Shown: positions 26,580 through 59,885 of the stretch, piece after piece
Layout: each line of letters opens with the position of its first letter
Numbering within the stretch: the stretch's first letter is position 1
DNA from: Tubulanus polymorphus
Lineage: Eukaryota > Animalia > Nemertea
Assembly (NCBI RefSeq): GCF_964204645.1
Contig: NC_134031.1
Span: 9,486,001 to 9,550,000, forward strand
DNA length: 64,000 bases
Direction: 5' to 3'
Program-made: the position numbers and the translations under genes
The notes under the pieces: generated by a model
Told to the model about the DNA's origin: nothing
Database searches by the model: none
Seen by the model: only the letters and a program-made list of their open reading frames with translations

Positions 26580-26927
26580 ATGGAGAGTAAACAATCACAA
26601 AACAATATAAACTTCATCAAAAGAATTAGAGATACTACAAATGTAAAATCAGTAGATTATAAATTTAAAAAGTTAACAGAATTAATAATTTATAAGAAAT
26701 ATTTAATTACAAATATTGAAACAATTACTACTAAATATGAAGATAAATAAGTAATTCATTTAGAATATGAAGGATTAAAAGGAAATAAATATGAATTCCG
26801 AACGTACTTACCAGATAGATTTCATAGATTATCTAGAAAAGATATTGATGAATTATGATCTGGTGATTTCTTTTTCATATATAAAGGTAAGAATGAAAAA
26901 GGACACCATGATATAGATTTCGAATAA
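26580..26927 (+). pseudogene. Isolated Polinton-like virus fragment, paralog of 41201-41554
   Basis: Colinear with 41201-41554 (NVKSVDYKFKKL..RTYLPDRFHRLS..GHHDIDFE); premature stops; TAAATG start. Confidence 0.85.
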
Positions 26928-27630
26928 AAATATAGCTGCAAAGCAGTGATAACGGGTTTTCTGCACATCCTCATTCATATTCTTGATCTTGTCTGAATAT
27001 CGTGTCGACGATCGCGTGTAAGCTGATGCAGCCGCAACATGCCATAAAAATCAAAGGGAAGTTAGAATCCTGTTCAACTGTCAAAACATTTTTATAAAAA
27101 GACGGTTGACAAACAGTCAATGAGGCCTACTTTGAAACCATGGATGACTGAACCAGATGGTTATTTGACTCTGGAAAATGGACTGTTAGGCCTCAATTAA
27201 TCTTTATGGATTTCAAAAAAGCATTTGATAAGGTCCAACATCTGCGATTACTAAATAAGCTATTCGGTAACGTTATCAATGATGGGTCGCTTGAATGGCT
27301 CAGCATATTTCTCTGAACGAAAACAGGTGGCCGAATTCAACGAAACTGTCTCATCTTGGAATAAATCGGTCTAACTAGTAGAGTCACGCAAGGTAGTATC
27401 CTCAGTCGTCTTCTTGTCGCTCTCCTGATAGATGATATACAGAATACAGTAATTCAAAATGTACCGGACAGAGTATATTTCCAAAACAACCTAATTTAAA
27501 ATGTACCCGACAGAGTATATTTCCAAAACTACCTAAACAAGCGGTGTTCCATTCATGGTCAGAAACATGGAAGATGGGCTTCGACCTGAAAGTTAATACC
27601 GATATGGGATACAAGGTAAACCCAGGTTCA
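26928..27630 (+). mobile_element. Composite repeat module with a CR1/L2-type LINE RT remnant
   Basis: Starts aaatatagctgcaaagcag; DFKKAFDKV.HLRLL.K and (S/G)VTQGSIL remnants; recurs at 47378-47725, 52311-52660 and inverted at ~61170-61305. Confidence 0.65.
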
Positions 27631-29070: not shown

Positions 29071-29258
29071 ATATAGTTTTGTCTCTTTTCTCTTCATTCT
29101 TCTGCTGCTTTATTATATTTCTCTAATGCTAAGTTATGTCTTCTTTGTTCTCCTAATGAACTATTTTAATCAATATGCATAAATAAATAACCACCACCAG
29201 TAAATGCTTAAGCGTTAACAATTGCCGATCCTATAATAGTTATAATTGCAGAAGCCAT
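29071..29258 (-). pseudogene. Small viral protein with hydrophobic Gly/Ala N-terminus (truncated, stops)
   Basis: MASAIITIIGSAIVNA*AFTGGGYLF..KRHNLALEKYNKAAEE; matches 42488-42821. Confidence 0.65.
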
Positions 29259-29282
29259 TTATTTAGTAAAATAATTACGCAT

Positions 29283-29504
29283 TTATATGGGAGGAATATA
29301 TTTTTGTTTTTCCAAATAATCAATAGTTAAATTAGATAAAGTAACTGCTAATGTTAATTTTAAAATATCATTTATATCAAATCTATCAACATTAACACTT
29401 CCCATTTTGAATACATTTTTTAATACCATTGAATAACCAACAGTTCCAACTGATAGTAATGCTCCATTATATAATCCAGTTATTATCCACTTATTATCAC
29501 TCAT
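29283..29504 (-). CDS. 73-aa viral hydrophobic/membrane protein
   Basis: Intact ORF with TAAATG start and two hydrophobic segments. Confidence 0.7.
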   Translation of the reverse strand: MSDNKWIITGLYNGALLSVGTVGYSMVLKNVFKMGSVNVDRFDINDILKLTLAVTLSNLTIDYLEKQKYIPPI

Positions 29505-29507
29505 TTA

Positions 29508-29861
29508 TTAATCAAAAAAATTACTATCTTCAAAATGTTTAGTTAACTTATTTATGATTAATTCAACATTTATTTCATTACTAGTTTCATTTGTATATAT
29601 TTCAATTATTATGTTTTTAATATCATCGATGATAAAATCTTCATCTAATCCATAAAATCTTAAAGATTCTCTAATTAAATTAGTAATCTTTTCTACATTT
29701 AAAGTTTCTTTATCTATTGTTGTTTCATACTCAAATGTTGTTTCATTAGAAAATGCAATATTTTTAATATGTATAATTACATCATTAATGTTAAATTTCA
29801 TTTCTTTCTCACGTTTAAAATCAAAACCAAAACATATACTCGGTCCAACAGTTATATCCAT
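29508..29861 (-). CDS. 117-aa viral hypothetical protein
   Basis: Intact ORF, TAAATG start; 5' part conserved in copy B at 42343-42487. Confidence 0.75.
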   Translation of the reverse strand: MDITVGPSICFGFDFKREKEMKFNINDVIIHIKNIAFSNETTFEYETTIDKETLNVEKITNLIRESLRFYGLDEDFIIDDIKNIIIEIYTNETSNEINVELIINKLTKHFEDSNFFD

Positions 29862-29877
29862 TTATATAATGAAAAAA

Positions 29878-30636
29878 TTACTCTCTACATCTTATAACTA
29901 ATTCATAAATTACAGGAAAGTTATTCAAATCAATTAAGTATCCATTGTGATTTCTTACTTCTAATCTAAAATTATTAAAATGTGGAATACAAGGTTTGAA
30001 ATCACATTCAGTTAAATTATGATTTATTTGAGTTCCAAATTGTTTAACATTTTTTAATGGTAAAATATTTAGTATACTAGAATTACATGTTGTATCTTTA
30101 GTTGCTTCAAATGTTTTTGTAGGATCAATTAAATTACAATAAATATAGAAATGTGTGTAAGGTATTAAGTTTGATCTACCTTCTGCGTTTACTGTAACAA
30201 TATCTGGGTTAATTCCTAACAGTTTAGCTAAAGGTTTTCTTACTGTAAATTTAAATTGTTCTTCATGAGCTAACCTAATCTTTATTTTATTAGAACTATC
30301 ACTTTTTGAAAATCTAATACTTAATCCGGAATCACTTCCTAATTTAGCTCGAGCTTTTCTATTAATTTCTTGTGCTAATGTATCTAAATTATATAATCCT
30401 GGTTTTAAATATATAAAAAACCATTTATTCCTTTTTTTGTAAAAGATTGAAAAAATTAAATGTTCTAGACTTTTATCCGATATATTGTAAAATGAGTTAC
30501 ATAAACTTATATTTACTAATTTTAAATCAACACAATTCTTAAATTCTCTATCTAATTGTATTAGTAAATTATGTGATTTATAATTTGTAAGTTTTCTAGA
30601 ATCAACAAATATTCTGTATTCTTTTAATTCTACCAT
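29878..30636 (-). CDS. Minor capsid protein (penton, single jelly-roll)
   Basis: Penton-like pattern FVDSR..NSFYNI..PGLY..LAKLLGI..FYIYCNLID..ILNILP..EVRNHNGYLIDLNNFPVIYEL. Confidence 0.8.
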   Translation of the reverse strand: MVELKEYRIFVDSRKLTNYKSHNLLIQLDREFKNCVDLKLVNISLCNSFYNISDKSLEHLIFSIFYKKRNKWFFIYLKPGLYNLDTLAQEINRKARAKLGSDSGLSIRFSKSDSSNKIKIRLAHEEQFKFTVRKPLAKLLGINPDIVTVNAEGRSNLIPYTHFYIYCNLIDPTKTFEATKDTTCNSSILNILPLKNVKQFGTQINHNLTECDFKPCIPHFNNFRLEVRNHNGYLIDLNNFPVIYELVIRCRE

Positions 30637-30704
30637 TATTTATAACATAAAAAAATTACCGCTCATCACTAAAAATTAATTTTAACAAAATTTTTCCTAA
30701 ATAA

Positions 30705-31961
30705 ATGGATGAGAAGGTACCATGCGAAATTTGTGGTGAACTTCTAAGAAAAAGTAATATGGCTCGACATATGAAAAAACATGATGAAAATTATAAACCC
30801 CCTAAAATAAACTGCCCAAAATGTAAAAAATTATTCTCAAGAAATTATGTTAAAAAACATTCAGAGAAGTGTAAAATTAATGGCGCAACGGCTAATGTTG
30901 ATAGTAACGAAAGTAATAGTAATTCTGTTGAAGTTGAACCTGAAATTATTTGGAAAAGACCTTTCTTATTATATGACAAGGATAATATAAAAGATCATTT
31001 CTGCGAGCCTTGTCGAATGAAATTTAGTCCTGAAAATATAGAAGCTTGGGAGAATCATCAATTTCGTAAAATATATATAGATAAAATTTCTAATAAATTT
31101 GAAACTGAATTCAATGAAAGAAAAAATAGTTTATTAGAAAAAATAAAATATGAGAAAACGTTACCAGATAATAAAGAAACAGTTGAAAAGTTAGAAAAAC
31201 AATATAATGAATTAACAAGAAAAACATATTATTGTAAATATTGTAAATTGATTATTACAACAAGTAATTCAAATCTACATAATAGAACAATAAAACATAA
31301 AGAAAACGTAAGAAAATACCAGGAGCTTAATGAAGATCTATTACCAATAAATTATAAACAAAAATGCCCACAATGTAATTATGCGACCTTAAGGCAAGAA
31401 GGTACTGTGTTATTTTGTAATGAATGTGGATGGCAAAAGAATTTATGGGGTGAAGAAAAAACTAGAGATTTTCTCATTGAACCAAAATTAAATTATCTAA
31501 CAGAAATTTTTAAAATATTTTCTATAGAAGATCATACACCAGAAACAATTATTCCATCAACATTTAACACAAAAGAAAAGAAAATGTATTTATATTTATT
31601 ATTTGATGATTATTATGAAAAACCTAAATTAACAGAAGAAGATATGGAAAATATAAAAAAAACATTCAAACAAATATTTATGTATCATTTGGAAAATAGA
31701 ATAACAGATTCAATTAATTATGAATTCTTTTTAAATAAGATTGTAAATTATTTAAACATCGATATTATAATTCCATTTGACGAATTAACAAACAAAAAGA
31801 AACAAAGAGAGCGAGATGAAATGTGGTACAAGATAGAACTTTATTTAAATGAGAAAAATGAAATGGAAGAAGAACCTAAACAAATTATACAGGAACAATT
31901 AAATGAAAATGAAGAAGCCAATAGTGATTTTGAGTATGATGATATTGATTTTCAGTTTTAA
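30705..31961 (+). CDS. Multi-zinc-finger protein with C-terminal poxvirus VLTF3/A2-like domain
   Basis: C2H2/C2HC fingers, then CPQC-x13-CNEC ribbon, PKLNYL, EKPKLTEEDMENIKKTFKQI..INYEFFLNKI..DEMWYKI; intact 418 aa. Confidence 0.72.
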   Translation: MDEKVPCEICGELLRKSNMARHMKKHDENYKPPKINCPKCKKLFSRNYVKKHSEKCKINGATANVDSNESNSNSVEVEPEIIWKRPFLLYDKDNIKDHFCEPCRMKFSPENIEAWENHQFRKIYIDKISNKFETEFNERKNSLLEKIKYEKTLPDNKETVEKLEKQYNELTRKTYYCKYCKLIITTSNSNLHNRTIKHKENVRKYQELNEDLLPINYKQKCPQCNYATLRQEGTVLFCNECGWQKNLWGEEKTRDFLIEPKLNYLTEIFKIFSIEDHTPETIIPSTFNTKEKKMYLYLLFDDYYEKPKLTEEDMENIKKTFKQIFMYHLENRITDSINYEFFLNKIVNYLNIDIIIPFDELTNKKKQRERDEMWYKIELYLNEKNEMEEEPKQIIQEQLNENEEANSDFEYDDIDFQF

Positions 31962-34900
31962 TGGCCATAAGGTAATGGTTTTATACCATCATCTAAAGTA
32001 TGCCTTTTATCATCAAATGGATTGAAACTAGTTTTTTCAACTTTATTAATGTACATCTCGTGATCTTCTGATCTTAAACAATTCATTTTGTGTTTCATTA
32101 CAATTGAGTTATATAAACACTTTATATAATCTTGAAATTCTATATGTTTATCAACCACATGTTTTTTTATTCCTTTTAACTTTTTAGCTTCTTGATCTTT
32201 TGTTCTATAACTATACATTTTACTTCTTATCCCAACAAATTCAATCATTTCATCACCCCCTAATTCATCTTTAAATTTACCAGGAATCTTTTCATTATCA
32301 TTGCTAAATAGTTCATGATCTTTGGGATAATTGCTAAAATCAAAATGATGTTTTAATGTTTTTAAGTCTTTTGTTATGTCATTTGTCTTGATTTTTAGTA
32401 TGTAACTGTCAGTATTTTTGGCAATTAATGGAAATCCACAGTTAAATGTACCATCTTCAGTTGATAAATCATAAACATAATCTGATGGGTTATATATTTC
32501 AAATAAATCTTTAACTTCTTCTGTTAATTCTTTTTCTACATGCCTTAAATTAAAACAATTTGGTTTAGATTTAATTAATTCTATATTCATATTAAATCCT
32601 AATGAACTGCATAATATATTTAATCCTGATATAGCATTTTTTCCTTTCTGTGCAAAGGTTATCTTTTTATCATTTGTAAATTTTTTAGTGCCATCTGCGG
32701 CATAGAATCCAATGAAGAACCACTTTCTTAAATTATTTTTTGCATTTAATACATAATCTGGAACTATCTTTTTTTTTGTTGAAGTATTACTTTTCACTAT
32801 TGCATGAATATAGAATTCATCATTATATTTTATAGCAAAATCTTTAGGATTATTTACAAGTATTCTATAAACTGCTGATGATTTCATAACATCCATGATT
32901 CTAAATGTTTTATGTGAATAAACTTCTTCACAGAATTTCTTTATTCTTTCTAATAATTTTAAGTCTTGATTGCATAAATACCAACAATATTTATTACCCC
33001 AAACATAATTATACACACCTGCTGAACCATCTCCCATAAAAAATCCTTTGATAAAATATTCTTTTTCTTCTAATGTTTCAGGTTCTATATTATAAATATA
33101 ATCAATTATTTCATCAAATGACATATGATTCATTCTTTGGAAAAATCTTTTATGTAATAATTCATCTCCAATTTTTATATCAGTTGGTTTTATTTCATCA
33201 CCATTTCGTTTAATTAAACTATGATCTTCTGTAACATCTACAAACCCTAATTTAGTTCTAACTCTATAGATTTACTTATTTGTTTTATGCCTAATAATAT
33301 TCTTTAATTTTTTTCATCCATTAAACCATTTATTTGTATTAATTCTTTTTCACCATATGAAATATAACATTCATTTTGTTTTGGAATTATTTCTGAAATT
33401 CTTCTCATCAATATTTTATCATTACATTTTAATAACATTGGGGTGTCAGCTTTTGCAGAATCAAAACATAATATTTCAATATGCTTTTCCCCAAAAAGTG
33501 GTTGTTAAACATTATAATAAAAATCATACATTAATAATTTTGATACTTCTAAAACAGTTGAACCAATGAATATAGGTTTATTAAATTTCATTGACGTTCT
33601 TTTTAATTTAACTGCTGTTAAATAATCTTCAAATCTTTTATTTCCTAAATGTCTAGGACTTGATTGTAAATGTCTTAATCTTTCAGAATTATTTACTAAT
33701 TCAATATCATTTCTATTTCTAATATTTTCGCATGTTTTACCATAAAAACTATTATTCATTAATTTGAAGAAATCTTTTTCAAAATCTGTTTTTGATATTT
33801 GATTTGTACTTTCTTTAATTTCATTCCTTGTTTAAGATAAAATTTTAACATTCTATAATGAACAATATAATTGTATTTATTATTTTGAGTAAGTATTAAT
33901 TTTTCTGTAAAAACATGATCTTTCGGTTTTATTTTCTTCTGGTATTCACTTAAATAACTATCATCTACGGTTAAATGTTCTGGGCAATAAGGTAAGTTTC
34001 TTGTTTTAAACTTTATATTTTCAGGATATTCTAAATCAACTACAAAGAAATAACCAATTGGTGCTTCATCTTTTAAACTCGCAATTGTGCTTTCCCAATC
34101 AGTTTTATCCTCATTTTCAACTTCTGTTAATATAAAATTTTTGTATGGTTGAGGTTGCATCATTGCCCAACCATATAAACTATTGGCGTCAATATATAAT
34201 AATTTATATTCATCATTTGCTTTAAGATATCTATCACCCATAACACCACTAATTCCACCTCTAATTGATTTTTCAAATAATAAAACCATGTCTGGTTCTT
34301 TTAATAAATCTAATTCTACATTTGTATATTTTAAACCACATTGCCAGGTTAAACCAGGACTAGAGTAGCAATAACAAGGATCAACATTAAAATGATTCAA
34401 ATTAACTTCTCTAATTTTTTCAAATATGTCAGCCAATATCATAACATCTGATTTTAAATATAAATCAACTAATTCACCATGATTTTTCATCTTAAAATGG
34501 TTCCAAATATTTAATGTTCTATTAAACACTTCGTCTTTCACGTACTCCTCATTTAATTGATCGTAAAATTTATCTTTTAATTATTCTGTTACATTAAAAT
34601 CATTGTGTGTTTTATAAAATGAATAAGGAATTGCACCTTTATATCTCAATAATTTAAAATCTTGTTCATTTGGATAATAATATCGAGTTATTATAAAATC
34701 ATTATCAACTAAACTTTTTGATAAATTATCTAATGAACTTGCTAGAAATCTATAAGAATCTAAAAATCTAATGCAACCAAATTGAAATGAAATATAATTT
34801 TCAGATGTTTTAGCTAATAGTTTAAAATCATATTTTCTTACATTCATACCATTCATAGCATTATATTCTTCTATTTCTTGATTAATTGCGCCCAATTTTC

Positions 34901-36886
34901 CCGATAATTGTTTTATAAATAGATGGGTATCATAGCCGGATAAATTATGAAATAATATTGGAACGAAATTTACTTTTTTAGCTTGTAAATTACAATCTTC
35001 ATGAGCAGCTCGACGATATTTTGAATTTAAATGATCATGATCTCTAACTTTTTTATCAAATGAATAAAAACGTTTTTCACAATAACAACAATGAGTTGCA
35101 TAATTAAAATTAATTTCATCTTTTGTCATAACTATTCTTTTATTTTTGTTTAATAATTCTGCAAAATCACTTTCCAATTCAATTATTTTGTTACAAAAAT
35201 CATTAACTACATTTTCACCTCTAAAAGAAATATATTGACTTTCATATAATTCAGGATAATTTGATTTTATGTAAATTCCATAAGCAGCAGCTCTTTGATG
35301 AATTTTTTTAATTGTATTAATAATTGGTGGGTCTTGAATTATATCTTCATTTACTTCATTTCCTTTATCCATTGATTTTAATAATTGCTTTTTGTTATAT
35401 ATTTCTTTTCTATCTTGATCAGTTAATTCTTTATTCAACGATTCAAAATCCCCATAAATTACTAATGGAACAATATTTTTAAATATATGATTAGTAAATT
35501 TCAATTTATAATCTTTTTCTGTTGGCATTATTAGTTTACAAAAATCTTTATTATCACATAATTCTTTATGTTTTAGTAACGCATTCTCAGTTCTAAATTT
35601 AGATAAACATTTTCTACATAGATAAATTTATTATGGTGATCACTTTCTGTTCTAAAGAATAAATCAATTTGTTTTAACCACATATAATGTTCATTTTCAT
35701 CTTTTTTGTAATATAACAAATCTATAGCATTTTCATCATCATAATATTCTATTAAATATAAAGCTTCCAATGTATAATCTTTAATATTTTCACCTTTTGT
35801 CTTTGGTAATTGCATTAATTCTAATACATTTATTTTTAAATTATTAATTTTTTCTATTTTGGGTATCATTTTTATAGTTACTGGATATTGATCAATTTTA
35901 TATAATGTTTCATATTTCCGATAATTTGTTATCCTAAAACTATGCGTAATATCTTCTGTTGGGTGGAAGCGACTAATAATTGACCATAGAAAACATTATC
36001 TTCATTTTGAATATTTATTACTCCTTTTCTGTTGTAAAGTTTGAATCATTTTTAAACATTTTATTACTTTTTGATGTTTTATTTCTTTTTGTACTATAAA
36101 CATTTAAATCTAAAAATATAATTTCATTCAATGTTAAGCCAGTACCCTCAAAATATCTTTCTTCAATATGACGTTTAAATTCATTAAATATTTTTTCTAA
36201 TTTCTCTTTTATTTGTGTTTTTGAAATTATTTCTTCAGAGAGTGTTTGAATATTATAATCCATTTTATCTTCTGACTTTAAAAACTTATTTTCCCAGAGA
36301 TACTAATTTTTTGATATTCAACATCTGTTATCAAATCTAGTATTTTTTCTATTATTTCATTAAATTTACTATAATCTTCTATTGTTGTACCTTTAGAAAA
36401 TTTAAATATAATAGCTGCAGGACCAATTTTACTACGTAATGTTTCTAATATTTCAATTGTATCTTTTATTTCTAGTGAATCAATATAATTTCTAACATTT
36501 TCCATGTTAGGTTTATTTGAAATGGATTTAGTTTTTGAAGTTGTTTTTTTTACTTTTTGAGGTTTATCATCGAAATAATCTTTTCATAAAACATTATTAC
36601 TCAAATTTTGATGGTGTTTTTGTGATTCGAGATGTCTATTATAATTCCTTTTTGTTATAAATTCATCACAAACTTCACATTTTATTTCATCCACATTCAT
36701 ATCATCTAATCGTTCTTTTCTTTCATTTGTATTATCTAGTGTTTCAAAATCTATTACATTTTATATGATTTGCAGTTTTTTCATGTCGTGATTTTTGGGA
36801 TTTATCGATGTATTTTTTACAATATTGGCAATAATAGTGATTTTATTAACATTATTATTTTCTGGCTGGTGTTCATTCTCCCCCAT
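31958..36886 (-). pseudogene. polB: Protein-primed family B DNA polymerase (ZnF, OTU-like, exonuclease with HNH/EndoVII insert, polymerase), intein-containing
   Basis: VIYGDFES, KVRDHDH..AAHEDCN, FHNLSGYD, YIDANSLYGWAM, MNNSFYGKT, CFD|intein|TDS, IRSKMY; frameshifts, stops and small deletions. Confidence 0.92.
32414..33459 (-). mobile_element. Intein with LAGLIDADG homing endonuclease at the PolB pol-c site
   Basis: Block A SAKADTPMLL after D; block B VDVTEDHSLI; blocks C/E FIKGFFMGDGS and FFIGFYAADGT; blocks F/G YVYDLSTEDGTFNCGFPLIAKN followed by T+1; absent from copy B (YFDTDS). Confidence 0.92.
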
Positions 36887-37217
36887 TTATTAGGAAAAAA
36901 AATTACTTGTGGTGATGAGTGGTGTCTCGACCTTCGACCTCTGGTATGAAACAACACATTTCCTATTACTAATACAGATGGCTCAATAATGGGCGTAGGT
37001 TATTCCCACGAAATGGAGTTAATGCATGCTGGAAGACAATTTTTCTTCTGAATATTGAAAGTGGGAAAACAAGAGAATTTATGAAGCATGCATTTGAATA
37101 TGAAGACATGGTGGTTATTCATTATATTGGTAACCATGACCTGGCAAAGTTTTCTTTGCGTCCATAAATAGTAAAAAAGTACACATCCGCACCGCACCAT
37201 CGGTATTAGAGAACATC

Positions 37218-37300
37218 AAAAGTGAACACGGAGAGCCTACAAATATCTATATATCTATATCTAATATGTAGATATTTGTAGGCTCTCCGTGTTCACTTTT
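37218..37300. repeat. Perfect 32-bp-arm hairpin (foldback mini-element)
   Basis: aaaagtgaacacggagagcctacaaatatcta / tagatatttgtaggctctccgtgttcactttt. Confidence 0.85.
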
Positions 37301-37302
37301 AT

Positions 37303-37576
37303 GAGTAATAGGGGTAATGGGCTTTCAAGCCAAAGGTCGAACGGTCGAGTTCATTAAAAACAAAACATTAATGTCACTCCGCGACCAATTGATTTATTTA
37401 CAATACACAAATTCATATAATCAAATATATTTTAATAATAATAATTATTCTATTATTCAACTGAAATACACACGGTTATGAAAATATATTATAGTTTTAA
37501 ATTACTTTTAATGTTTTGTTTTTAATGAACTCGACCATTCAACCTTTAACCTGAAAGCCCATTACCCCTATTACTC
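37303..37576. mobile_element. MITE with ~70-bp TIRs and GAG..CTC termini
   Basis: gagtaataggggtaatgggctttca...aaaacattaa mirrored at 37508-37576. Confidence 0.7.
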
Positions 37577-37781
37577 CTAAAATAATCATATAAATGAATA
37601 ACATTTAAATTGACAGATTATTCAATATAAAAGTATATATTTACAACATTATTTCAATATTCATATTTGTGTGAGTTAGATTATTAAACATTAAAAGTGT
37701 TAGTAAAGTGTGATTGAAATAATACATGATATAAATCATTGAACTTCTAAAATCAATTTTAATAAAAAATTTAGTATTAAA

Positions 37782-40700
37782 ATGGAAGCAAATAAGTACT
37801 ACTGCCCAACATGTAATATCAATTTAGATAAATCCCAAAAAGCAAGACACAATAAAACTAAAACACATTTAGAGGATAAATTGAAACTAGAATATGAAGA
37901 TGATATATTAGAAACTAAATTAGAAGAATTAAAGAATGAAAAAGAAACATTCAAATGTGATACATGTAATCAATCATTCAGTGATAAAAGATATTATAAT
38001 AAACATTTAAAATCTAAAAGCCATATTAGAAATAAGAATAATGATATTTTAGTTGAAGATTATTTTGATAATGATAATGATAAGAAACAGAAGACAATTA
38101 AAAGCATAAAAAATAAATTAAACAATAAAAGACCATACATGGAAGATGTAAGAAAATATATTAATTTATTGGATAATAAAAAAGATATAGAGAGGATAAT
38201 AAAGAAGATATTGAGATAACCGAAGCATTTAAAAGTGATATTGGCCCAGCAGCTATCGAGTTTAAATTTCATAAAGGAAAAACGTTAGAAGAAAATAAAA
38301 AACATTTAGAAAATATGGAAGAAATAATAAAAATAATAACTGATGTTGAATATCCCAAAATAAGTATTTCATCAAAACTTAAATTCATAAAATCTGAAGA
38401 TAAACCAATATATAATATAAATTATCATTCACAACATATTATATATAAACAACATATAGATGATAAATTAGATACATGTTATAATGAAGTAAAAACTAAA
38501 ATAGAAGAGAAATATTTTGAAGGATCTGGTTTAATATTTGATGAAATAATATTTATGACTTTACATGTGTATAACACAAAATATAATAAGTTAACTAAAT
38601 CAAAACCAATTGATGAAAATAATGTATCATATTATAAAGAACCAGATATTGAAGAATCGAGTTATATTAAACTACCATTTAAAACTAATGCTGTTATAAA
38701 TGTACAAAATGAAGATGATAAATGTTTTCTATGGGCTATAATAAGTTGTTTACACCCAGTTGAAGATTATAAACAACATAGTTTTAGATTAACTCATTAT
38801 AAACAATTTGAAAATAATAATAAGATAGATAAGTATCCTGTTATAATTAAAAACATCCCAAAAATAGATAGAGATAATAATATAATGATAAATGTATTTG
38901 ATTTAATCAAATTACCAAATACAAAAGGTAACAATATAAAACATTATACATTAGAACCTTTATATCTATCAAAAGATTATGATTCAAATGATCTTATAGA
39001 TATACTATATTATGAGAATCATTATATGTGGATTAAACAAATCGATTTATTTTTTAAATCAGAAAATGATCACCATAAAATATATCTTTGTAGAAAATGT
39101 TTACATAGATTCAGTAATGAAAGTACATTATTAAATCATAAACAATTATGTGAAAATCATGATTATTGTAAATTAGTTTTACCAAATGAAAAGGATAAAA
39201 TATTAGAATTCAAAAAATATGATAACAAAAATAAAGTACCATTTGTAATATATGGAGATTTTGAATCATTAAATAAAGAATTAACTGATCAAGATAGAAA
39301 AGAAATATATTATAAAAGAAAGAAATTAAATTCTAATGAAAATGCTTTTTCAGATGAACCACCAAAAACAAATACTATTAAAAAGATTCATGAATCAGCT
39401 GCTGCTTTCGGGTTATATATTAAATCTGATTATCCAGAACTAATTGAAAGTGAATATTACAATTACAGAAATGAAAATGTTATCAATCATTTTTGTGACT
39501 TAGAAAATGTGAATAGAAAATCATGGGCAATTAGTAGATTTATATTTAAAATCAGATGTATTATTATTAACTGATATATTCGAAAGGTTTAGAGATGTAA
39601 ACCTAAAATATTTTAACATTGATCCTTGTCATTGTTATTCATCGCCAGGATTAACATGGGATTGTGGATTAAAATTTACAAATATAAAAATGGATTTGTT
39701 AACAAATATAGATCAATTATAAAAAAAATATATTGAATATATTTGAAAAATCTATAAGAGGAGGAGTTTTAGGTGTATTAGGTGATAGATATTTCAATGT
39801 AAATGATAACCCCGGATATAAGTTATTATATATAGATGCAAATAATTTGTATGGTTGGGCAATGATGGAACCACAACCTTATGGAGTATTTGAATTAACT
39901 GAAGTTTTACAGAATGAAAATAATGATAAATTTGATTGGAAGAAAAGAATTCTAGATATTGCAGATGATTCAGATACTGGTTACTTCTTTGTTGTAGATT
40001 TAGAATATCCTGAACATATTAAATTTAAATCTAGAAATCTAGCATACTGTCCAGAACATAAAACTGTAACTCATGAAGAATTATCAAATTACCAAAAAAG
40101 AATTGAACCCGAAAATCATATTCATACAGAAAAGTTAATGGTAACTCAAGAAGATAAATATAATTATGTAGTACATTATAGAATGTTAAAGTTTTATCTA
40201 AAACAAGGAATGATCCTAAAAAAAGTACATAGTTATATTTCATTTAGTCAATCTAAGTGGTTAGAAAAATATATAGATTTTAACACCAAACAGAGAACTG
40301 AAGCTAAAACTGATTTCAAGAAAGATTTTTTCAAGTTAATGAATAATGCATTCTATGGTACGACTTGTGAAAATATTAGAAATAGAAATGATATTGAGTT
40401 AGTTAGTAATGGTAAAAGGATAAGGCATTTACAATCATATCCTAAGTTCATTGGTAACAGAATATTTGATGAAAATTTAGCTGCAGTTAAGATGAGAAGA
40501 ACATCAATGAAATTTAATAAACCAATCTATGTTGGCGCTTCAGTTTTAGAATTATCAAAATTACTAATGTATGAATTCTATTATAATGTATTACAACCAC
40601 TTTTTGGAGAAAAACATATAGAAATATTATATTTTGATACAGATTCTTACATATTAAAGATAAAAACTGATAACATAACTGATGATTTAAAAACATTAAA

Positions 40701-41169
40701 ACATCATTTTGATTTCAGTAACTATCCTAAAAATCATGAATTGTTTAGCAATGATAATAAAAAAGTTCCAGGGAAGTTTGAGGATGAATTAGGTGATGAA
40801 GAAATGATAGAGTTCATCGGTATCAGATCTAAAATGTATTCATATAAAACTAAAGAACATGAAGCTAAAAAGTTAAAAGGAATAACCAAAAGTGTAGTAG
40901 AAAAGAATATTCATTTCAAAGATTACATCAATTGTATATTCAATGAAGAAGTAAGAAAACATAAGATGAGATGTTTAAGATCTGAAGATCATGAAATGTT
41001 TATTGAAGAAATTGAAAAGATAAGTCTAAACCCATTTGATGATAAAAGATATATTTTAGATGATGGAATTCATACAGTTGCTTATGGTTGTAATTTAGAT
41101 GAATACTTAAAATTTAAAAGAGAAGAAACAAAACAGAACGAGATAATGAAAGGAATTCTAACGTGTTAA
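37782..41169 (+). pseudogene. polB: Protein-primed PolB, intein-free, with internal deletion and frameshifts
   Basis: Two C2H2 fingers, NEDDKCFLWAI, YGDFES, YIDANNLYGWAM, KLMNNAFYG, YFDTDS; HNH/ExoII region missing at ~39500. Confidence 0.92.
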
Positions 41170-41200
41170 TCAAATTTTAATAAAAATATATATATTATAA

Positions 41201-41554
41201 ATGGAGGGTAAACAAGCGCACAGTGAGAACAACAAATCATTTCTAGATAGAATAAAAGATACTTCAAATGTCAAATCAGTAGATTATAAATTTAAGAAGT
41301 TAAAAGAATCAATAATCCATAAGAAATATCTAATTACAAATATTGATATAGTTACTAACAAATATGGAGATAAATTAGTTATACACTTAGAATATGAAGG
41401 ATTAAAAGGAAATACACATAAATTCAGAACATATTTACCGGATAGATTTCATAGATTATCAAGTGAAGATTTAGAAGAATTATGTTCTGGTGATTTCTAT
41501 TTCGTATACAAAGGTAAGAATGAAAAAGGGCACCATGAAATAGATTTCGAATAA
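41201..41554 (+). CDS. 117-aa viral protein, possibly OB-fold/ssDNA-binding
   Basis: Intact; beta-rich pattern FKKL..KKYLITNIDIVTNKYGDKLVIHLE..TYLPDRF; fold call is inference. Confidence 0.6.
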   Translation: MEGKQAHSENNKSFLDRIKDTSNVKSVDYKFKKLKESIIHKKYLITNIDIVTNKYGDKLVIHLEYEGLKGNTHKFRTYLPDRFHRLSSEDLEELCSGDFYFVYKGKNEKGHHEIDFE

Positions 41555-41571
41555 GAAAATATGTAAAATAA

Positions 41572-42327
41572 ATGGTAGAATTAAAAGAATACAGAATATT
41601 TGTTGATTCTAGAAAACTTACAAATTATAAATCTCATAATTTACTAGTTCAATTAGATAGAGAATTCAAGAATTGTGTAGATTTAAAATTAGTAAATATA
41701 AGTTTATGTAATTCTTTTTATAATATATCGGATAAAACTATTGAAGATAATACTGTTTTAATTCATATTAGAAATGTAGATAAATGGTTTCATCTAATTT
41801 TAAAACCAGGATTATATAATTTAGAAACATTAGCTCAAGAAATTAATCGTAGAGCACGGTTGAAAATTAGAAGAGATGATAAATTTTTAATAAGATTTAT
41901 AAAAAGTGATAGCACAAATAAAATTGAAATAAAGGTATATGATGAAAGTCAACATGCATTTATGGTAAAAAAACCTATAGCTAAACTGTTAGGAATTGTA
42001 CCAGATACTGTTACAGGAAACGTAGATGGTAATTCAAATATAATACATTTTACACACTTTTATATTCATTGCAATTTAATCGATCCTACAAAAACTTTCG
42101 AAGCAACTAAAGAAACAATTTTGTAGTTCTAGTATACTAAATATTTTACCGCTAAAAATGTTAAACAATTTGGAACTCAAATAAATTATAATTTAACAGA
42201 ATGTGATTTTAAACCTTGCATTCCTAAATTTAATAATTTTCAATTGGAAATAAATCATAATGGATATTTAATTGATTTGAATAACTTTCCTGTGATATAT
42301 GAATTAGTTATAAGATTTAGAAAGTAA
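41572..42327 (+). pseudogene. Minor capsid protein (penton), frameshifted
   Basis: N- and C-terminal parts nearly identical to 29878-30636, middle divergent; frameshifts after ~42115. Confidence 0.8.
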
Positions 42328-42487
42328 TTTTTCACTATATAAATGAATATAACTGTTGGACCGAGTATATGTTTTGGGTTTGATTTTAAACATGAGAAAG
42401 AAATGAAATTTAACATTAATGATGTAATTATACATATTAAAAATATTGCATTTTCTAATGAAACAACATTTGAGTATGAAACAACAA

Positions 42488-42821
42488 GCATATTGATAAA
42501 AATGGATCATTAACAGAACAAAAAAGACATAACTTAGCATTAGAGAAATACAATAAAGCAGCGGAAGAATATAGAGAAAAGAGGCAAAACTATATGGATT
42601 ATATTAACAAGGATCAGAAGATTTCACATAGAGATTTTCAATCAGTTGATGATGCAATGAGTTTATATAATGCGGTAACAAATAAAGAAAAATTACATCT
42701 ATACAAACCTAAATTATCAGATTATTATACACCAAGTAATGAACAGAAGAAATATGAAATAATATGGATTTTAGGCGGAACTGTTATTGTTATATTTGTT
42801 GCTTATAAATTTACTAATTAG
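42488..42821 (+). pseudogene. 3' part of a small viral protein with C-terminal TM helix
   Basis: EQKRHNLALEKYNKAAEE..KPKLSDYYTPSNEQKKYEIIWILGGTVIVIFVAYKF; joined by deletion to the 42343 gene. Confidence 0.65.
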
Positions 42822-42840
42822 TAATTTTTTTTCTAAATAA

Positions 42841-44420
42841 ATGGAAGATAAAGTTGACAGTATTGTTAATATTCCTCATGATATAAATAAAACTAAATTA
42901 AAAATATATTTAGAAAAACAAATATTAGAATTTGAAAGTGACTTAAAGATAAACAAGAAAATTAACTTTAATAAATTATTTGACGCCTGCGAAAAAATGT
43001 AGAATTTCTGGGATAAGCTAATGTGGAATTGCAAATTTGAAATCGAAGTTATAAGAAATTTGGGGAATTATGAGATTTGGCGATTGGGTAGATGATACAG
43101 TCTTCGACTGGTCTAATTTAAAAAAAAATTGTCAACTTGTGACCGACTTCGATTCACTTTTGCCTCTAAGCTGGTCTGCAACTTCATTGCCTCCATGGTT
43201 GAAGAAAGAGCTCTTCTGATGTCTGCTTCATCATGACTTCGAGCATATCGTGTAGCCAGCCGGCCCGGTCCCGGGGCCCGGTTTGGCTGTCACTCGATAT
43301 CCTAGACTTGAGTCTGGGTTGAAGTAGACATTGTCATTTAAATAACTTATACATGTTATTCTGTATGAATTACCCGTGTGTCTTGTATTTTGTATTTTCT
43401 TAGTTTAAAATTTGTAACTTTATTGAATTTTGGAATTTAATCCCGGAATTTCAATGTAGTAGGGATCAATAAAGTATTGAATTGAATTGTCACCTTATAC
43501 ACATGCCATCAGGGGACGCAGAGCCGTATATGACAGCTATGCTATTATAAATTGCTAATCTCATGAAACCTGCATACCCCTAATATCGAACATATTTTCT
43601 AAAACATTTGAATATTGAAATTATATGTTTACACGTTTTTATATAGACTGCTTGTAGCCACCGATGAAATTCAAGCCGGCCCAACTCAGATCGTAGATAG
43701 CTTCGTCATTCCACTAGCATCCCCATGACAGGGTCTGAATTTTATATCAGACTTCCAAATCGTGTATACATCCGCCATTTAACCGAATAATCCGATTTAC
43801 TTATCATTTCTATTTATGCCTGCCGCTCCTGATATAATCATACATCCTTTACTATTACAATACGTCTTCTCATGATATTCAATGCAATATAACATTCCGA
43901 CGTTCAAATAGAGGTCATTATATAATCACAGGGAGCCATTCTACATCTTTATCAATAATATTTTGCCAAATAGCTTGTATGTGTACACATAAACCTGTGA
44001 CGTTTTGCACATCGATTTCCGGTTGTCGTTTGTAAAATGACGCTGAATGGTTAGCATTGTTTAGGTTTCATAATGGTAACGTTTTATAAGGCGTCAAAAA
44101 AGAAACAATATTTAAACAGTAAAATTATATATTATTTGATTATAAGTGGTTCGGTTACAATTAGTTCTGTAATAACATTTCTAGCAATATTCAGTCCATT
44201 AACACCTTTAGCTATATCAATTGGCGTGTAAGGATTAAGTTCAAGTGTTTTAACTGGTATAAGTTCAAAATTAAATATAAAAAGTAATAAAGAAAAAATT
44301 AAAACTAATATAAAAGAAATTAATAAATTAAAGAACACACTAGATTATATAATAAGTTTAAATGGTCATATAACAGTTGAAGAACAAGATAAATTATTAA
44401 AAGAATTAATAAATTATTAA
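42841..44420 (+). pseudogene. Probable two-TM viral gene split by a ~1.1-kb non-viral insertion
   Basis: TAAATG start at 42841 (MEDKVDSIV..); AT-rich hydrophobic remainder YYYLIISGSVTISSVITFLAIFSPLTPLAISIGV resumes at ~44090. Confidence 0.45.
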
Positions 44421-44436
44421 TTTTTTAATTATATAA

Positions 44437-45205
44437 ATGGCAGATAGTTTTCCAAAAGCTTTCCAATATAATAAATCAATTAAATATAATATTCCAGCAA
44501 TAGATTTTAATAAAGATATTACATATAGAAATGAAGTTTTAAATTCATTAATTGATTTATATATTTATGTCACTGAAAGTAATAATTTTCATGTAAAGAT
44601 GGAAAATATATTTCATGTGTATACAATTAATTTCAAAAATTTAAATGAGGCAAAACAATCGTTATTAAAATCTAATATGAAGTATTGGCAGAACCAATTA
44701 AATTTTGCGGTTTATTGCGCAACAACAGGATGTGGTATTAGTTGGAATGATCATTTAAACAAACCAAGTTTACCATTGATGTTATCACTTTTTAGATTTC
44801 ATACTTATTTTCAAATAAAATTAATATTAGATGAATTAGAATGTCCTTTACCAGGTTCAAAATATTTTAAAGAATTGAATAATAATATTAATTTTTCTAA
44901 GTTTTATGAAATATGTAATGAATTTAATATTAATTCAAATAAAGATTTTAGAGCAAAAATTGGAACAATGGGTGGATTAGGAATATTATATACTATAGAA
45001 TTTGGAAACATAATGACAAATTCAGATATAAGAATACTAAATTGGAATGAATTACCAAAATATTATAATGATATACAACAACAAAACAATAATGGTTGAG
45101 TTAATTTCATTTTAGAAAATAGTGAAGGTTTTACTAAAGCTGGAATACAAAGAATAAATCAATCTATTAGAACTTATTTGATATGTATTTTAGGTGCGCA
45201 AGTTG
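44437..45205 (+). pseudogene. Viral hypothetical protein (stop at 45097-45099, 3' end probably deleted)
   Basis: TAAATG start; WQNQLNFAVYCATTGCGIS..FRFHTYF; reading continues past TGA to RTYLICILGAQ. Confidence 0.6.
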
Positions 45206-46072
45206 TAACAAATAAGTTAAGATTAAGAGATTCAGAAGAAGAAATGAATAGTACTAGAATAAATCGAATACAACATCTATTAGAAAAAGGAATACTTGAT
45301 TTAACTGATGATGAATTAGAAGCATATCCTGAACAAACACGTAGAGAAATTAAAGGTATGCAAGAATCGGCTGATAAAATTGCGAATGAAAAAAGTATAA
45401 GAGATATTAAAATTAACAATTTAGAAAAAGAATTAACTGATAAAAATAAAGAAATAGAACAATTAAAGTCTGATCTTGATCGTCAAGTAATTGATGAAAT
45501 GGAATATAGACAAAAAGAATTACGTTTAGAAAAAGAAATTAATGATTTAAAAGATAACTTAGAAGTACAAAAAGGTGAAAGAGATATATTATTAAAAGAA
45601 TTTGGTAATAATTTTAAAAGATTAAAAGTTGTTGTTAAAGATTTGTTGATTAAACCAAATTCTGAAATATCATTGAAAGATAGAATAAAAATTATCATTT
45701 AAATTAGAAGGAATAACAATTCTTTCAATTCTAACAGCTGTAACTATGTTATTTACAACAATTGGTTTAGCAATATCAAATGCTTTAAAATCTACTCCTA
45801 CTCCAAATAAACCAGATAAGCCCCCAGATAATAATTCTATACAAGATAAAGTTAAAGATGGTTTAAAGAAATTAGCAAAATATTTATGGGAACTATCTAA
45901 AAAATCTGCTGCAGCATTACCAGGAATTATTGCATCAATTGTTGGTTTTATATTGAAATCTGCAGGAAACATTATTAACTTTGCTGCTGAACATATTATT
46001 TTATTTTTAATTACAGTTGTAAGTGCAATTATTTTTGGGCTAGTAAACATGATATCAAAAAATATCAAGTAA
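45206..46072 (+). pseudogene. Coiled-coil viral membrane protein (5'-truncated, frameshift ~45700)
   Basis: Heptad-rich region, then GITILSILTAVTMLF..ALPGIIASIVGFILK..IILFLITVVSAIIFGLV. Confidence 0.6.
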
Positions 46073-46111
46073 ACATGATCAAAAATAAAAATTAATTTTT
46101 TTGTTAAATAA

Positions 46112-47364
46112 ATGAGTGGGAGTTATATCAATCCTTGTAAGAATCATAGAATATCTAATGCTATTAAAGCAGAAAGATCACATCATATAATTACTCATAA
46201 CCCTTCTAATATTAATCCTGATGAAACTTTATATGTTAGAATTCCGAGATTAACACAAAATACTTTTTATGTTCAAAATAGTATTTATTTATCAGCCGAT
46301 GTAAAAGTAATCGGTAATAATAATAATTATGTTGTCGATAATGTTGGAAGGTATTTGATTAAAAAATTAACTATAAAGATTGGCCCAGAAACAGTTTTCT
46401 CATTAGATGATTATAATTTATTTATGCATTATAAAGATTTATGGTTAACTAAAGAAAATAGAAATAATATGATATTTCAAGGCATCCAATCAGAAAACCA
46501 AAATAAATTAAGATCAGGAGCTAATGACGCAATAGTAACTAATGCTGTAGATAAATTGATAAAAAAGATTTATGGAAGCAAATATAAAATTCCATTAGAC
46601 TTTGAATTGATAAATAATAATGCACCTTTATATAAATATGTAATTCAGGAATTCAAGACATTATATTCGAAATAACATTTGCTCCTGTAAATGAAATTGT
46701 ATTATCTAGCGTTGTTAAAGATATGAGTTATAAATTATCGAATATATGTTTAGAATATGATACAGTAACTGATGAAAATATTTCAAGTATAATTCAAACT
46801 AAATACAATCAAGGATTTTCATTATTATATGATTATATTGATAAATTTAAAACCGTAACTATTAATGCAAATGATGAAATAATTAATGAGAATATTAACT
46901 TCCCAAGAAGATCTATTAAAGGTATATTAATATTTTTTACCATTGCAACATATTCTAATGGTGCAATACAGGTTGATAAGTATTATAATCCCGATATTAC
47001 AAAAGTAGAAATAACTATCGAAGGAATAGCAAATAAAACATTTTGTCAAGGAATGAGAATGATAGATCAATGGCCAGAAATTAGAAAACATTTTATGAAT
47101 GAAAAAGTAAAATCATCTGAAAATTGTAATATTAATCAAATTGATTATTATACCGGTAATAAATATGCATTATGGTTAGATTTTAGAACAACAGAGGATA
47201 ATTCATTACATGGTTCATGAAAAAAATTACAAAACACTAAAGATGGAATACAATTATTCATGACAAAGAAAAAAGGAAGCCTAAATTTCAAAATGCACAT
47301 TTATATTATATCTGACGCGCAATTAAATATTGTAAATTCTCAATTGAATAGTGTTATGTATTAA
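46112..47364 (+). pseudogene. Major capsid protein (double jelly-roll), frameshift ~46650 and stop at 47218
   Basis: ~415 codons, beta-rich; ITHNPSNINPDETLYVRIPRL..NVGRYLIKKLTIKIG..YKIPLDFEL..NICLEYD..YYNPDITKVEITIEG..KYALWLDFRT..ISDAQLNI; resembles invertebrate PLV MCPs as recalled. Confidence 0.75.
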
Positions 47365-47754
47365 AATTTTAACTTTAAATATAGCTGCAAAGCAGATATA
47401 ACGGGTTGTCTGCACAGTCTTAGAATCCTGTTCAACGGTGGATTTCAACAAAGCATTTAATAAGGCTCAACATCAGCCATTACTAAACAGGCTATTAGGA
47501 AACAGTATCAATGATAGGTCGCCCAAATGGCTCAGCAGTTATCTCTGAACGGAAACTTGTAACCGAAATCAACGGAACGCCTCATCTTGGAATGAGACGG
47601 TCTAACTAGTGGAGTCACGCAAGGTAGTATCCTAAGTCGTCTTCTGTTTAATGTCCTGACAAATGACAGACACAGTAATCCAAAATATACCAGACCGAGT
47701 AGATTTCCAAAACGACCTTAACACACTGTTCGACAAAAAAACTTAATGTTCCAA

Positions 47755-59505: not shown

Positions 59506-59885
59506 GTTTTGTCGCGTTATTTTAGTTTTGTCGTTTTGTCATAATGTCGCCCTCATTTGCATATACGTGTTTTTTTACGCATGGCCCTTATCAGCCACCA
59601 TACTAAAGCCTTAAGGTCGCCTACGTAAAACTCGATAAACACTTCAAGCGACACAGCGAACGATCTCCTTTCCCCCACAGCGAACGCTTAACCTAGTAGA
59701 GGCTACTAGCCTATGTAGGCCTATGTATATGCGTAGGCCTAACATCCGGACAGATTGGTCGTAGGCCTATTGAATTTAACAACCCACCTAAATATCGTAA
59801 ATTTTGTTTTGAAGTTCAATCCAATGAGTCCGTTAATAAACGCAACAATTGTACTGTGTTTGTTTGATCAGGGAAGTGTGATGAG

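Follow-up and report, generated by a model that had tools for sequence, protein, structure and literature searches.

It is an open question how gene expression works in animal Polintons and whether it requires a helper virus. VLTF3, a late factor of large DNA viruses, has been reported in stony-coral polintoviruses (PMC11131425), and VLTF3-bearing coral polintoviruses and adintoviruses are described in PMC11131425, PMC8502044 and bioRxiv 10.64898/2026.06.19.733378; the coral paper (PMC11131425) makes no mention of 'promoter', 'intein' or 'helper', and the adintovirus paper (PMC8502044) none of 'promoter' or 'intein'. Precedents for helper use exist, as virophages employ the late promoter of their helper (PMC6428243, excerpt) and polinton-like viruses (PLVs) have been found in the occlusion bodies of entomopoxviruses (PMC11296320). 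Excerpts of the latter paper describe elements with a tyrosine recombinase/primase-helicase or no integrase, and its main text does not mention 'promoter', 'TAAAT', 'intein', 'VLTF' or 'transcription'. In the narrow sense, PLVs are defined by a helicase and a tyrosine recombinase instead of pPolB and rve (PMC11131425). Vaccinia late promoters show TAAAT(G) across the start codon, and their 10th nucleotide upstream is a conserved T; further late factors, A1L and G8R, are named beside A2L (sections of PMC11980589). In mriyaviruses, VLTF3 is a core gene, there is no RNA polymerase and replication is inferred to be nuclear (PMC11253617, in part). Endonuclease insertions in protein-primed DNA polymerases (pPolBs) have been suggested, in one sentence, to derive from inteins (PMC11161782).

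The window analyzed here is a 64,000-nucleotide stretch of the nemertean Tubulanus polymorphus. Its segment 29071-47370 consists of two decayed Maverick/Polinton fragments, A and B, in head-to-head orientation, both truncated and belonging to different subfamilies (about 69-86% nucleotide identity); the VLTF3-like ORF and the intein occur in copy A only, the major capsid protein (MCP) in copy B only. Copy A opens, at a left junction with host repeats, with the truncated remnant of a small conserved gene (29071..29258, minus strand; 139 aa in the intact relative L026; 76% to L026_2014 by tblastn), which has a TAAATG start. On the same strand follow a family-conserved 73-aa protein (29283..29504; 89% to L026) and a 117-aa ORF whose N-terminus matches L026_1333 (29508..29861), both with TAAATG and a T at -12 (T-12; the A of the ATG being +1), and then the open 252-aa frame of the probable penton, or minor capsid protein (29878..30636; 43% to L026_565). 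A divergent spacer of 68 bp (30637..30704), with TAAATG and T-12 on the VLTF3 side and the variant TAAATAATG on the penton side, leads to the VLTF3-like gene (30705..31961, plus strand; 418 aa). The pPolB of copy A (31958..36886, minus strand) is broken into several frames that align by tblastn with the intact P0004 (PF03175; 31-60% by segment), has a candidate start at 36886 with TAAATG and T-12, and contains a pol-c intein with a LAGLIDADG endonuclease (32414..33459, minus strand). A near-perfect hairpin palindrome, read from the sequence, lies between the 5' ends of both pPolB genes (37219..37300), and an element of about 275 bp flanked by inverted repeats (37303..37576) may be either a MITE or the end of an element.

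Copy B, on the plus strand, starts with a broken and internally deleted pPolB without intein (37782..41169), followed by a conserved 117-aa ORF (41201..41554; 31% to L026_125) and a broken probable penton (41572..42327; 42% to L026_565), each with TAAATG and T-12. Comparison with L026 then identifies two small-gene remnants fused through a deletion (42343..42821) and a small membrane, SLATT-like gene (42841..44420), whose N- and C-terminal parts match L026_2541 (SLATT_fungal E 0.0013 for the L026 relative in Pfam) and which, by its GC profile, is interrupted by a GC-richer insertion of about 1.1 kb. A conserved core gene, which we take to be PZ-like, is fused through a deletion to the final portion of the gene that follows, one of 485 aa (44437..46072; 69-76% to L026_2996 and 42-75% to L026_4328), and copy B ends after a double-jelly-roll MCP with one frame break (46112..47364; 73-75% to L026/P0121). 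Elsewhere in the window, the 5' portion of pPolB A is present once more (61596..63558, minus strand; 92-93% nucleotide identity to A), as is, by sequence comparison, an isolated piece of the 117-aa gene that starts with TAAATG and T-12 (26580..26921, plus strand). Broken as they are, the window copies would be incapable of making particles.

The family is a bona fide Maverick/Polinton with pPolB and rve, and is integrated in tens of copies; assignment to the PLVs in the narrow sense was considered and rejected, and in that sense the label of Polinton-like virus given by a sequence-only reading of the locus does not apply. The broken window pPolB pieces have no direct Pfam match and are up to 55-72% identical in the polymerase domain to P0004, which matches PF03175 (E 5e-17). 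An rve integrase is present in the intact relatives L026 and L030 (E 1.5e-10) and absent, by tblastn, from the truncated window copies; likewise, an A32 packaging ATPase is found in L026 (Pox_A32, E 4.6e-11) and none in the window. A nucleoside kinase (dNK) is encoded in L026 and L032 (Pfam E 1.7e-31 and 8.3e-31), this gene and the divergent VLTF3 being restricted to some family members. Among the ORFs scanned in the window and its relatives there is no RNA polymerase gene, as the sequence-only reading had stated, and among the L026 ORFs, which cover 11.5 kb of probably about 17 kb, no protease, cysteine protease included, was seen. The same reading had credited the element with its own MCP and penton. 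This is borne out for the MCP: the model of its relative P0121 (22-row alignment; AF2 pLDDT 77) is a double jelly roll that matches the PBCV-1 capsid (Foldseek E 4e-14, probability 1.0) and fits PBCV-1 and iridovirus capsids at least as well as that of mavirus. The putative penton is so named for its length and its place in the gene order, with a weak DUF5901 hit (E 0.0035) and no significant Pfam or PDB sequence match. L026 unites capsid, integrase, ATPase, nucleoside kinase and VLTF3-like gene on one element; the segment 29071-47370 itself holds fragments of two subfamilies.

The VLTF3-like ORF had been called intact. It is indeed open over 418 codons (30705-31961), which is no sign of selection since the ORFs around it, between 29283 and 33271, have no breaks either. 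Its product has N-terminal C2H2-type zinc fingers, followed by a zinc ribbon and a VLTF3-like helical domain (about aa 215-385), and the homolog cluster P0001-3 shares 41% identity. Pox_VLTF3 (PF04947) is not matched in Pfam even at E≤10 by the window ORF, P0001 or P0003. In the ESM Atlas, 26 of 30 matches carry Pox_VLTF3 (score 0.91), with 191-196 shared features among the matches listed, and hhalign against 80 giant-virus VLTF3s gives a probability of 82.6 (E 9.7e-6, 166 columns) at a score of 40.9 versus at most 22 in 100 shuffles, the zinc ribbon and the C-terminal domain being colinear with VLTF3 in the profile comparison. A VLTF3 HMM scores 11.0 bits versus a shuffle maximum of 8.2. The structural model is poor (pLDDT 47.5), and eight named VLTF3s stand among its top 31 Foldseek rows at TM ≤0.16. 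The homology thus survives in hhalign and ESM Atlas, with Pfam negative, and the protein is probably a highly divergent VLTF3 homolog that passes profile and language-model tests, not Pfam.

The intein of pPolB A also withstood scrutiny as one of the NCLDV pol-c type: it is inserted at the pol-c site (xxD|TDS, 33459-32414) and matches LAGLIDADG_3 (E 6.7e-7) and, below the Pfam cut-off, Intein_splicing (E 4.7e-5); its frame is broken once, and its N-terminal splice motif is degenerate. The pPolB of copy B represents the empty allele (YFDTDS). The pPolB inteins form one clade of their own, with a C-terminal N-x-GFP motif in 9/9 versus 11/76 inteins of RNA-primed PolBs, and their nearest outsiders are inteins of RNA-primed polymerases, among them P0013, whose polymerase matches giant-virus bins. 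By these sequence relationships, the intein appears to be an older, separate gain whose source was the DNA polymerase of a large virus and which later homed among pPolBs. A canonical pol-c intein clade in protein-primed polymerases is a record of contact, at the level of DNA, of polintoviruses with large DNA viruses. As P0013 resembles giant-virus bins that rarely have TAAATG starts, the intein is no pointer to a helper. The view that TAAATG starts, VLTF3 and intein point independently to one helper therefore fails, on the intein (P0013) as on the distribution of VLTF3 (PMC11131425; PMC11253617, in part; L041).

The new observation is a gene-start signal of two parts, TAAATG and T-12. The TAAATG starts noted by the sequence-only reading are confirmed, at 12 of 37 first-ATG ORFs of at least 50 aa versus 44 of 777 other ATGs in 29071-47370, and turn out stronger than claimed, being bipartite and family-wide and standing on both sides of very short divergent gaps. 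Bare TAAATG is in mild excess (56 versus 39.3±6.4 in 200 block shuffles, about 2.6 SD); the extended motif TAATTTTT-N5-14-TAAATG, picked post hoc from the same data, occurs seven times versus 0.19 expected (maximum three in 200 shuffles). T-12 accompanies 12/12 TAAATG starts of the window versus 17/45 internal TAAATG sites, and 24/26 and 16/17 TAAATG starts in non-redundant relatives. TAAATG with T-12 predominates in 17 of 19 gene families of the clade and precedes genes for structure, replication and integration as well as VLTF3. The T maximum falls on the 9th base upstream of TAAAT, the 10th being also T-rich (19/26, 14/17), which agrees with the published vaccinia late promoter within one base, and an A peak at -18 is reminiscent of intermediate promoters.

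Among genes that are mutually related, so that binomial p-values overstate their independence, TAAATG starts are found at 29/32 genes of the closest relatives (GC 0.20-0.27), 22/26 genes of the sister group (GC 0.29-0.44) and 4/4 genes of L046-47, against a background of 1.5-5% at other ATGs. In controls, TAAATG stands at 11/216 starts of 23 other pPolB virus loci, 1/49 of distant capsid relatives, 6/69 and 11/209 of giant-virus loci and 1/8 of the AT-rich locus L015 (GC 0.22). Head-to-head gene pairs of the clade have TAAATG on both sides in 5/6 cases, four of them spaced by only 19-30 bp; it is therefore not the stop or poly(A) signal of an upstream gene, and such gaps would be too short to hold both a TATA box and an ordinary leader. 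The VLTF3 gene and the pPolB candidates share this late-type signal, so that no early class for a self-start is evident. L003, from an unrelated pPolB branch, has 7/7 TAAATG starts with T-12 at only 4/7, and in L046-47 the T-12 signal is absent (2/4 starts). L041 has a weak, sub-threshold Pox_VLTF3 match (E 6.4e-4) yet TAAATG at 0/12 starts. In related clades, TATA-type words adjoin the ATG (7/7, 7/12, 5/5), which suggests that start-proximal motifs are general here and that each element's own factor may read them. Coding-strand AATAAA is not depleted (ratio 0.93), and the presumed-nuclear control is alike (0.92), which makes this test uninformative.

For what reads this signal, we infer, with confidence evenly poised between belief and doubt, that the clade is a satellite that depends on a co-infecting helper, a cytoplasmic virus of pox type, and uses the late transcription machinery of that virus. 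An integrated copy would stay silent until the helper infects the cell; helper RNA polymerase and late factors would then initiate transcripts within the AAA of TAAATG, giving a single all-late gene class like that of mavirus and Sputnik, and the element's DNA would be copied by its own pPolB and packaged in its own capsid at the helper's factory, its VLTF3 supplementing or competing with the helper's factor. Counting against a pox-type satellite are the VLTF3 of the polymerase-less, inferred-nuclear mriyaviruses (PMC11253617, in part), the imperfect linkage of VLTF3 and TAAATG (L041, L003, L046-47) and an intein that suggests a donor of non-TAAATG type. The mriyaviruses also lend weight to a contender that we hold unlikely, though it deserves serious thought, namely an autonomous, helper-free nuclear polintovirus whose own VLTF3-like protein, which its virions may carry, steers the host's RNA polymerase II to a compact initiator that either descends from the late promoters of large viruses or has converged on them. 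The rve integrase and tens of integrated copies favor this, as do the different start words of sister clades, and a very divergent VLTF3 fused to zinc fingers is consistent with a long independent history. It has to contend with a VLTF3 gene under the identical promoter type, with a match to the vaccinia late promoter that spans two separate features, and with the 19-30-bp bidirectional spacers, which are atypical for polymerase II promoters; moreover, vaccinia uses extra late factors, and no A1L or G8R Pfam match occurs among the 65 ORFs scanned.

It is quite improbable that TAAATG is no promoter at all and only reflects translation or compaction, through the start context, a coupling of stop to start, or AT bias. 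In its favor, the window element has an AT content of 76%, its bare TAAATG excess is mild and some tandem genes lie 0-3 bp apart; against this, TAAATG is retained at GC 0.39-0.44, stands on both sides of divergent pairs without an upstream stop, is rare in the AT-rich L015 and comes with a fixed T at -12, and its T at -3 makes the Kozak context poor. Equally hard to credit is a helper outside the Poxviridae, a large DNA virus with a TAAATG-type initiator, or a wiring that is an ancestral relic, recent copies having spread purely as transposons. The giant-virus-bin polymerase type among the intein's nearest outsiders would fit, and excerpts of PMC5294985 report TAAAT-like words in ranavirus polymerase promoters and bipartite, poxvirus-like late promoters in ASFV; the giant-virus loci examined rarely show TAAATG, however, and the motif persists in open-frame contigs whose capsids share no more than 51-56% identity, which argues for long selection. 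Extending the pox-type satellite reading further is more tentative than that reading itself: although animal Mavericks/Polintons are usually regarded as self-synthesising transposons of the nucleus, this entire clade of them may consist of integrating virophages, with helpers from a pox-type virus family of aquatic animals that is still to be discovered, with all genes wired to the poxvirus late promoter and an own VLTF3 that diverts helper late transcription, the copies being a fossil record of the helper and possibly an inducible defence.

A two-part promoter common to nearly all genes of the clade makes the Polinton helper question cheaply testable. If the pox-type satellite is real, these elements would be animal counterparts of mavirus-type provirophages, and poxvirus-like viruses are predicted in hosts without any on record; should the nuclear, autonomous alternative hold, a giant-virus late factor would have been reused to steer host polymerase II, with a bearing on the role of VLTF3 in polymerase-less viruses.

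With regard to known systems, the family resembles animal Maverick/Polintons (Polintoviricetes, 'adintoviruses') in its pPolB, rve integrase with chromodomain, A32 ATPase and double-jelly-roll MCP, its probable size of about 17 kb, multi-copy integration and patchy VLTF3, and differs from those described in the clade-wide TAAATG/T-12 signal and, in some members, the pol-c intein and dNK. Entomopoxvirus-associated PLVs are likewise small double-jelly-roll animal viruses, proposed as poxvirus hyperparasites (Barth et al., 2024; PMC11296320); compared by description only, their helper link is physical, through occlusion bodies and shared mobile genes, whereas the link proposed for the present clade is through its promoter. 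Mavirus, Sputnik and Gezel-14T/PgVV would be analogous in having no RNA polymerase and helper-shared promoters and, for mavirus, rve integration (PMC6428243 and bioRxiv 10.1101/2022.07.28.501842, both in part), but their hosts are protists and their helpers and motifs of mimivirus type, PgVV using the early AAAATTGA; the virophage core also includes a maturation protease, of which none was seen in the part of L026 covered. The pol-c intein agrees with those of large-virus family-B polymerases in its xxD|TDS site, Ser start, Asn end and LAGLIDADG endonuclease, and departs from them in residing in a protein-primed polymerase and forming its own clade. The VLTF3-like protein shares with vaccinia A2/VLTF3 the zinc ribbon and C-terminal VLTF3 domain, while falling under the Pfam threshold and having extra N-terminal zinc fingers. 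The start signal, finally, is like the vaccinia late promoter in that TAAAT(G) overlaps the start codon and follows a T-rich tract with one dominant T (PMC11980589 and PMC5294985, excerpts), the T peaking at the 9th base upstream rather than the 10th of the review's wording.

The region at 29-47 kb, across which GC content falls from about 37% to 21-27% except at one insertion (43-44 kb), consists of two decayed Polinton fragments in head-to-head arrangement, both of them broken. Copy A (29071 to about 36930) carries a broken, intein-bearing gene for a DNA polymerase B of the protein-primed type (pPolB) on the minus strand, a probable penton gene and small genes, as well as a VLTF3-like ORF of 418 codons (30705-31961) that is convergent to pPolB. 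On the plus strand, copy B (37782-47364) contains a pPolB that is broken, partly deleted and free of the intein, together with a 117-aa gene, a probable penton gene, small genes, a conserved PZ-like core gene and a capsid gene, after which it ends. The two copies are about 69-86% identical in their overlapping parts, and a third fragment (61.6-63.6 kb) shares 92-93% identity with A. In a WGS run under the same species label, the depth was 194-252 over the core of A, whereas the flanking bins of lowest depth had 8.5-10; if these bins are single-copy, there are roughly 20-25 copies. Reads over the element are mostly 90-99% alike. About 170 reads join window position 26929-26934 to 30637, setting the 117-aa gene directly on an A-type penton; thus, in other copies, this gene occupies the place of the VLTF3-like gene of A. 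Four short contig records of X9 (presumed RNA) map solely to flanking repeats and were not used as evidence.

Between the two pPolB 5' ends, at 37219-37576, a hairpin with 32-bp arms precedes an element of roughly 275 bp with long inverted ends, for which element termini and a MITE are both possible readings; the read depth there is above that over copy A. Retrotransposon debris can be found in the flanks, and long arrays of a 31-bp tandem satellite adjoin the element (47769-49558, 46 copies; 54091-59516, 172 copies). Judged by eye from ORFs, a decayed RT/GIY-YIG element with 343-bp inverted arms, presumably Penelope-like, lies at 6427-8912, and an LTR retrotransposon, presumably of Gypsy type, at 9479-13612.

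With the capsid N-terminus as query, 22 proteins of 50-78% identity were retrieved, and their alignment led to 42 metagenome loci; in IMG/VR, neither the window major capsid protein (MCP) and pPolB as single queries nor the MCP alignment found relatives. The metagenome locus L026 (11.5 kb) displays the gene order of B followed by an rve integrase, an A32 ATPase and a deoxynucleoside kinase, and at its end the VLTF3-like protein P0001/P0003 begins. A contig of 16,883 bp, probably a complete element judging from equal length, is the source of both P0003 and a member of the capsid cluster. The capsid and VLTF3-like genes therefore belong to one element type, as the sequence-only reading had it, although here they lie on the separate fragments B and A. 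The capsid protein is modelled as a double jelly roll (pLDDT 77; Foldseek E 4e-14), and such a capsid together with pPolB, rve and the ATPase makes the family a Maverick/Polinton; the penton assignment is probable. PDB sequence searches with the MCP profile, the penton, the intein and the VLTF3 domain gave no significant match. Two TAAATG-clade elements carry deoxynucleoside kinase genes (L026:10340-10981 and L032:2895-3377; Pfam E about 1e-31). A Pox_Rap94 match in locus L043 (E 0.019) was treated as chance.

Within the element region of the window, TAAATG is found at 12/37 first-ATG ORFs vs 44/777 other ATGs, a contrast that is partly built in because an in-frame TAA makes the next ATG the first. 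This doubt is removed by the enrichment in relatives, where TAAATG stands at 29/32 starts of the closest group, 22/26 of a sister group of up to 44% GC and 4/4 of loci L046-47, against a background of 1.5-5% at other ATGs. Among controls, the motif is present at 11/216 starts of IMG/VR pPolB loci (n=23; L003 counted apart, L020 left out as a duplicate), 1/49 in distant capsid relatives, 0/7, 0/12 and 0/5 in three nearer clades, where TATA-type words occur, and 6/69 in giant-virus loci. In head-to-head gene pairs it stands on both sides in five of six, four spanning just 19-30 bp. A second part of the signal, which emerged from the profile of the relatives, is a T at position -12 (A of ATG being +1), seen in 12/12 window TAAATG starts vs 17/45 internal TAAATG sites, in 24/26 and 16/17 starts of non-redundant relatives, but in only 2/4 for L046-47; both features are present by majority in 17 of 19 gene families (58 genes). 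The reported feature is real, and its promoter signal is stronger than had been reported from the TAAATG starts of the window.

L003 (IMG/VR, 9 kb; GC 0.38), a pPolB element of another branch, has TAAATG at 7/7 starts without the T-12 signal (4/7), and one of its ORFs apparently fuses a protease-like N-terminus, recognized by eye, to an rve integrase. TATA-type words at most 12 nt from the ATG replace TAAATG in the related elements L040, L041, L043, L048, L049 and many of L005-L025; in L041 such a word is near the ATG in 7/12 cases despite 49% GC. Start motifs specific to each clade may be a general trait of polintoviruses.

The homology of the 418-codon ORF to VLTF3 is probable on sequence comparison, despite the silence of Pfam, and the homologues found form a single cluster of three proteins. 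In hhalign, 80 closely related VLTF3s of giant viruses, taken as a profile, matched the VLTF3-like protein across 166 columns, beginning with the zinc ribbon and ending with the C-terminal motif (P 82.6, E 9.7e-6), with a score of 40.9 vs a maximum of 22 in 100 shuffles. In an HMM search, the cut domain reached 11.0 bits, compared with no more than 8.2 among the 969 shuffles that were scored; it alone beat the shuffles, the full-length ORF giving no E<=1 against 2144 targets. In the ESM Atlas, 26/30 matches were Pox_VLTF3 clusters (score 0.91); for whole proteins, the tool states that 4-10% of shuffles also attain 0.9. The AF2 model was of too low a quality to support a statement on the fold. 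The VLTF3-like alignment found no relatives in the prokaryote genomes searched, and PF04947 was present in 0/5 pPolB virus records examined. L047:4141-4746, VLTF3-like by eye, was unsupported (hhalign P 0.5 and 4.5) and not counted.

The intein of copy A (33459-32414) does sit at the pol-c site (xxD|TDS) of pPolB, as had been claimed, and this site is empty in B. Among 115 matches the best were other pPolBs (P0004, 63%). The intein could be extracted from 107 of these 115 proteins, the host proteins being classed by motif rules and three of them Pfam-checked. In a midpoint-rooted FastTree of 88 full-length rows of at least 280 aa, the 10 pPolB inteins group together in one clade (support 1.0, and 0.99 for the endonuclease alone), which is adjoined by the inteins of the RNA-primed PolBs P0014, P0013 and P0018, the nearest outside pPolBs; with the splicing domain only, two pPolB inteins fall outside the clade. 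The P0013 polymerase is 38-47% identical to giant-virus bins, and intein-bearing and empty pPolBs are intermixed within one clade. The intein is therefore related to those of giant viruses, but its probable entry into pPolBs is old, and it has been homing among them. The intein family also occurs in type II topoisomerases (16/115 matches by motif rule; P0015, P0051, P0072-P0081 and others), some of which hold several inteins. P0010, an intein-bearing pPolB annotated in a bacterial symbiont MAG, is probably host-animal contamination of the assembly.

The family itself encodes replication, integration and capsid functions, genes of every class, VLTF3 included, share a single compact type of promoter, and no RNA polymerase gene was found among the ORFs scanned, in agreement with the sequence-only reading. 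That reading had also taken start motif, VLTF3-like gene and intein as pointing to one helper. The two-part start motif does point to a pox-type helper, but the intein gives no clue to its identity, since giant-virus loci of the P0013 kind rarely start genes with TAAATG. As an argument from three independent signals to one helper, the case is weaker than reported. It can be hypothesized that the element would be expressed from the late promoter machinery of a pox-type helper; we infer every step beyond the sequence pattern, and give such satellite use an even chance. The serious rival, less likely than satellite use, is an autonomous nuclear virus whose own VLTF3 steers host polymerase II: mriyaviruses, for which a nuclear life is inferred, keep VLTF3 while having no RNA polymerase (PMC11253617), and L041 has a weak VLTF3 match beside a different start word. 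Depletion tests for AATAAA and TTTTTNT failed to tell nuclear controls from cytoplasmic ones. Defence of the host by element copies is speculation.

VLTF3 has been reported in coral polintoviruses (PMC11131425, itself citing an earlier report). No description of a poxvirus-late promoter in animal Polintons, or of a defined pol-c intein clade in pPolB, was found in the titles, abstracts or available passages of the literature compared, whose supplementary gene maps might show these features (PMC11131425, PMC8502044, PMC11296320, PMC11161782, PMC11980589, PMC5294985, PMC3671162, PMC12220804, PMC11253617, PMC6428243; bioRxiv 10.64898/2026.06.19.733378, 10.1101/2022.07.28.501842, 10.1101/2024.03.23.586382, 10.64898/2026.10.13.758929). 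With one promoter type throughout and no RNA polymerase gene among the scanned ORFs, the element resembles the virophages mavirus and Sputnik, which, in the passages available, use the late promoter of their helper (PMC6428243). Vaccinia late promoters are described, in the portions consulted, as TAAAT(G) over the start codon with a conserved T among weaker Ts (PMC11980589); this key T is the 10th nucleotide upstream, whereas in the window clade the peak is at the 9th, with the 10th second.
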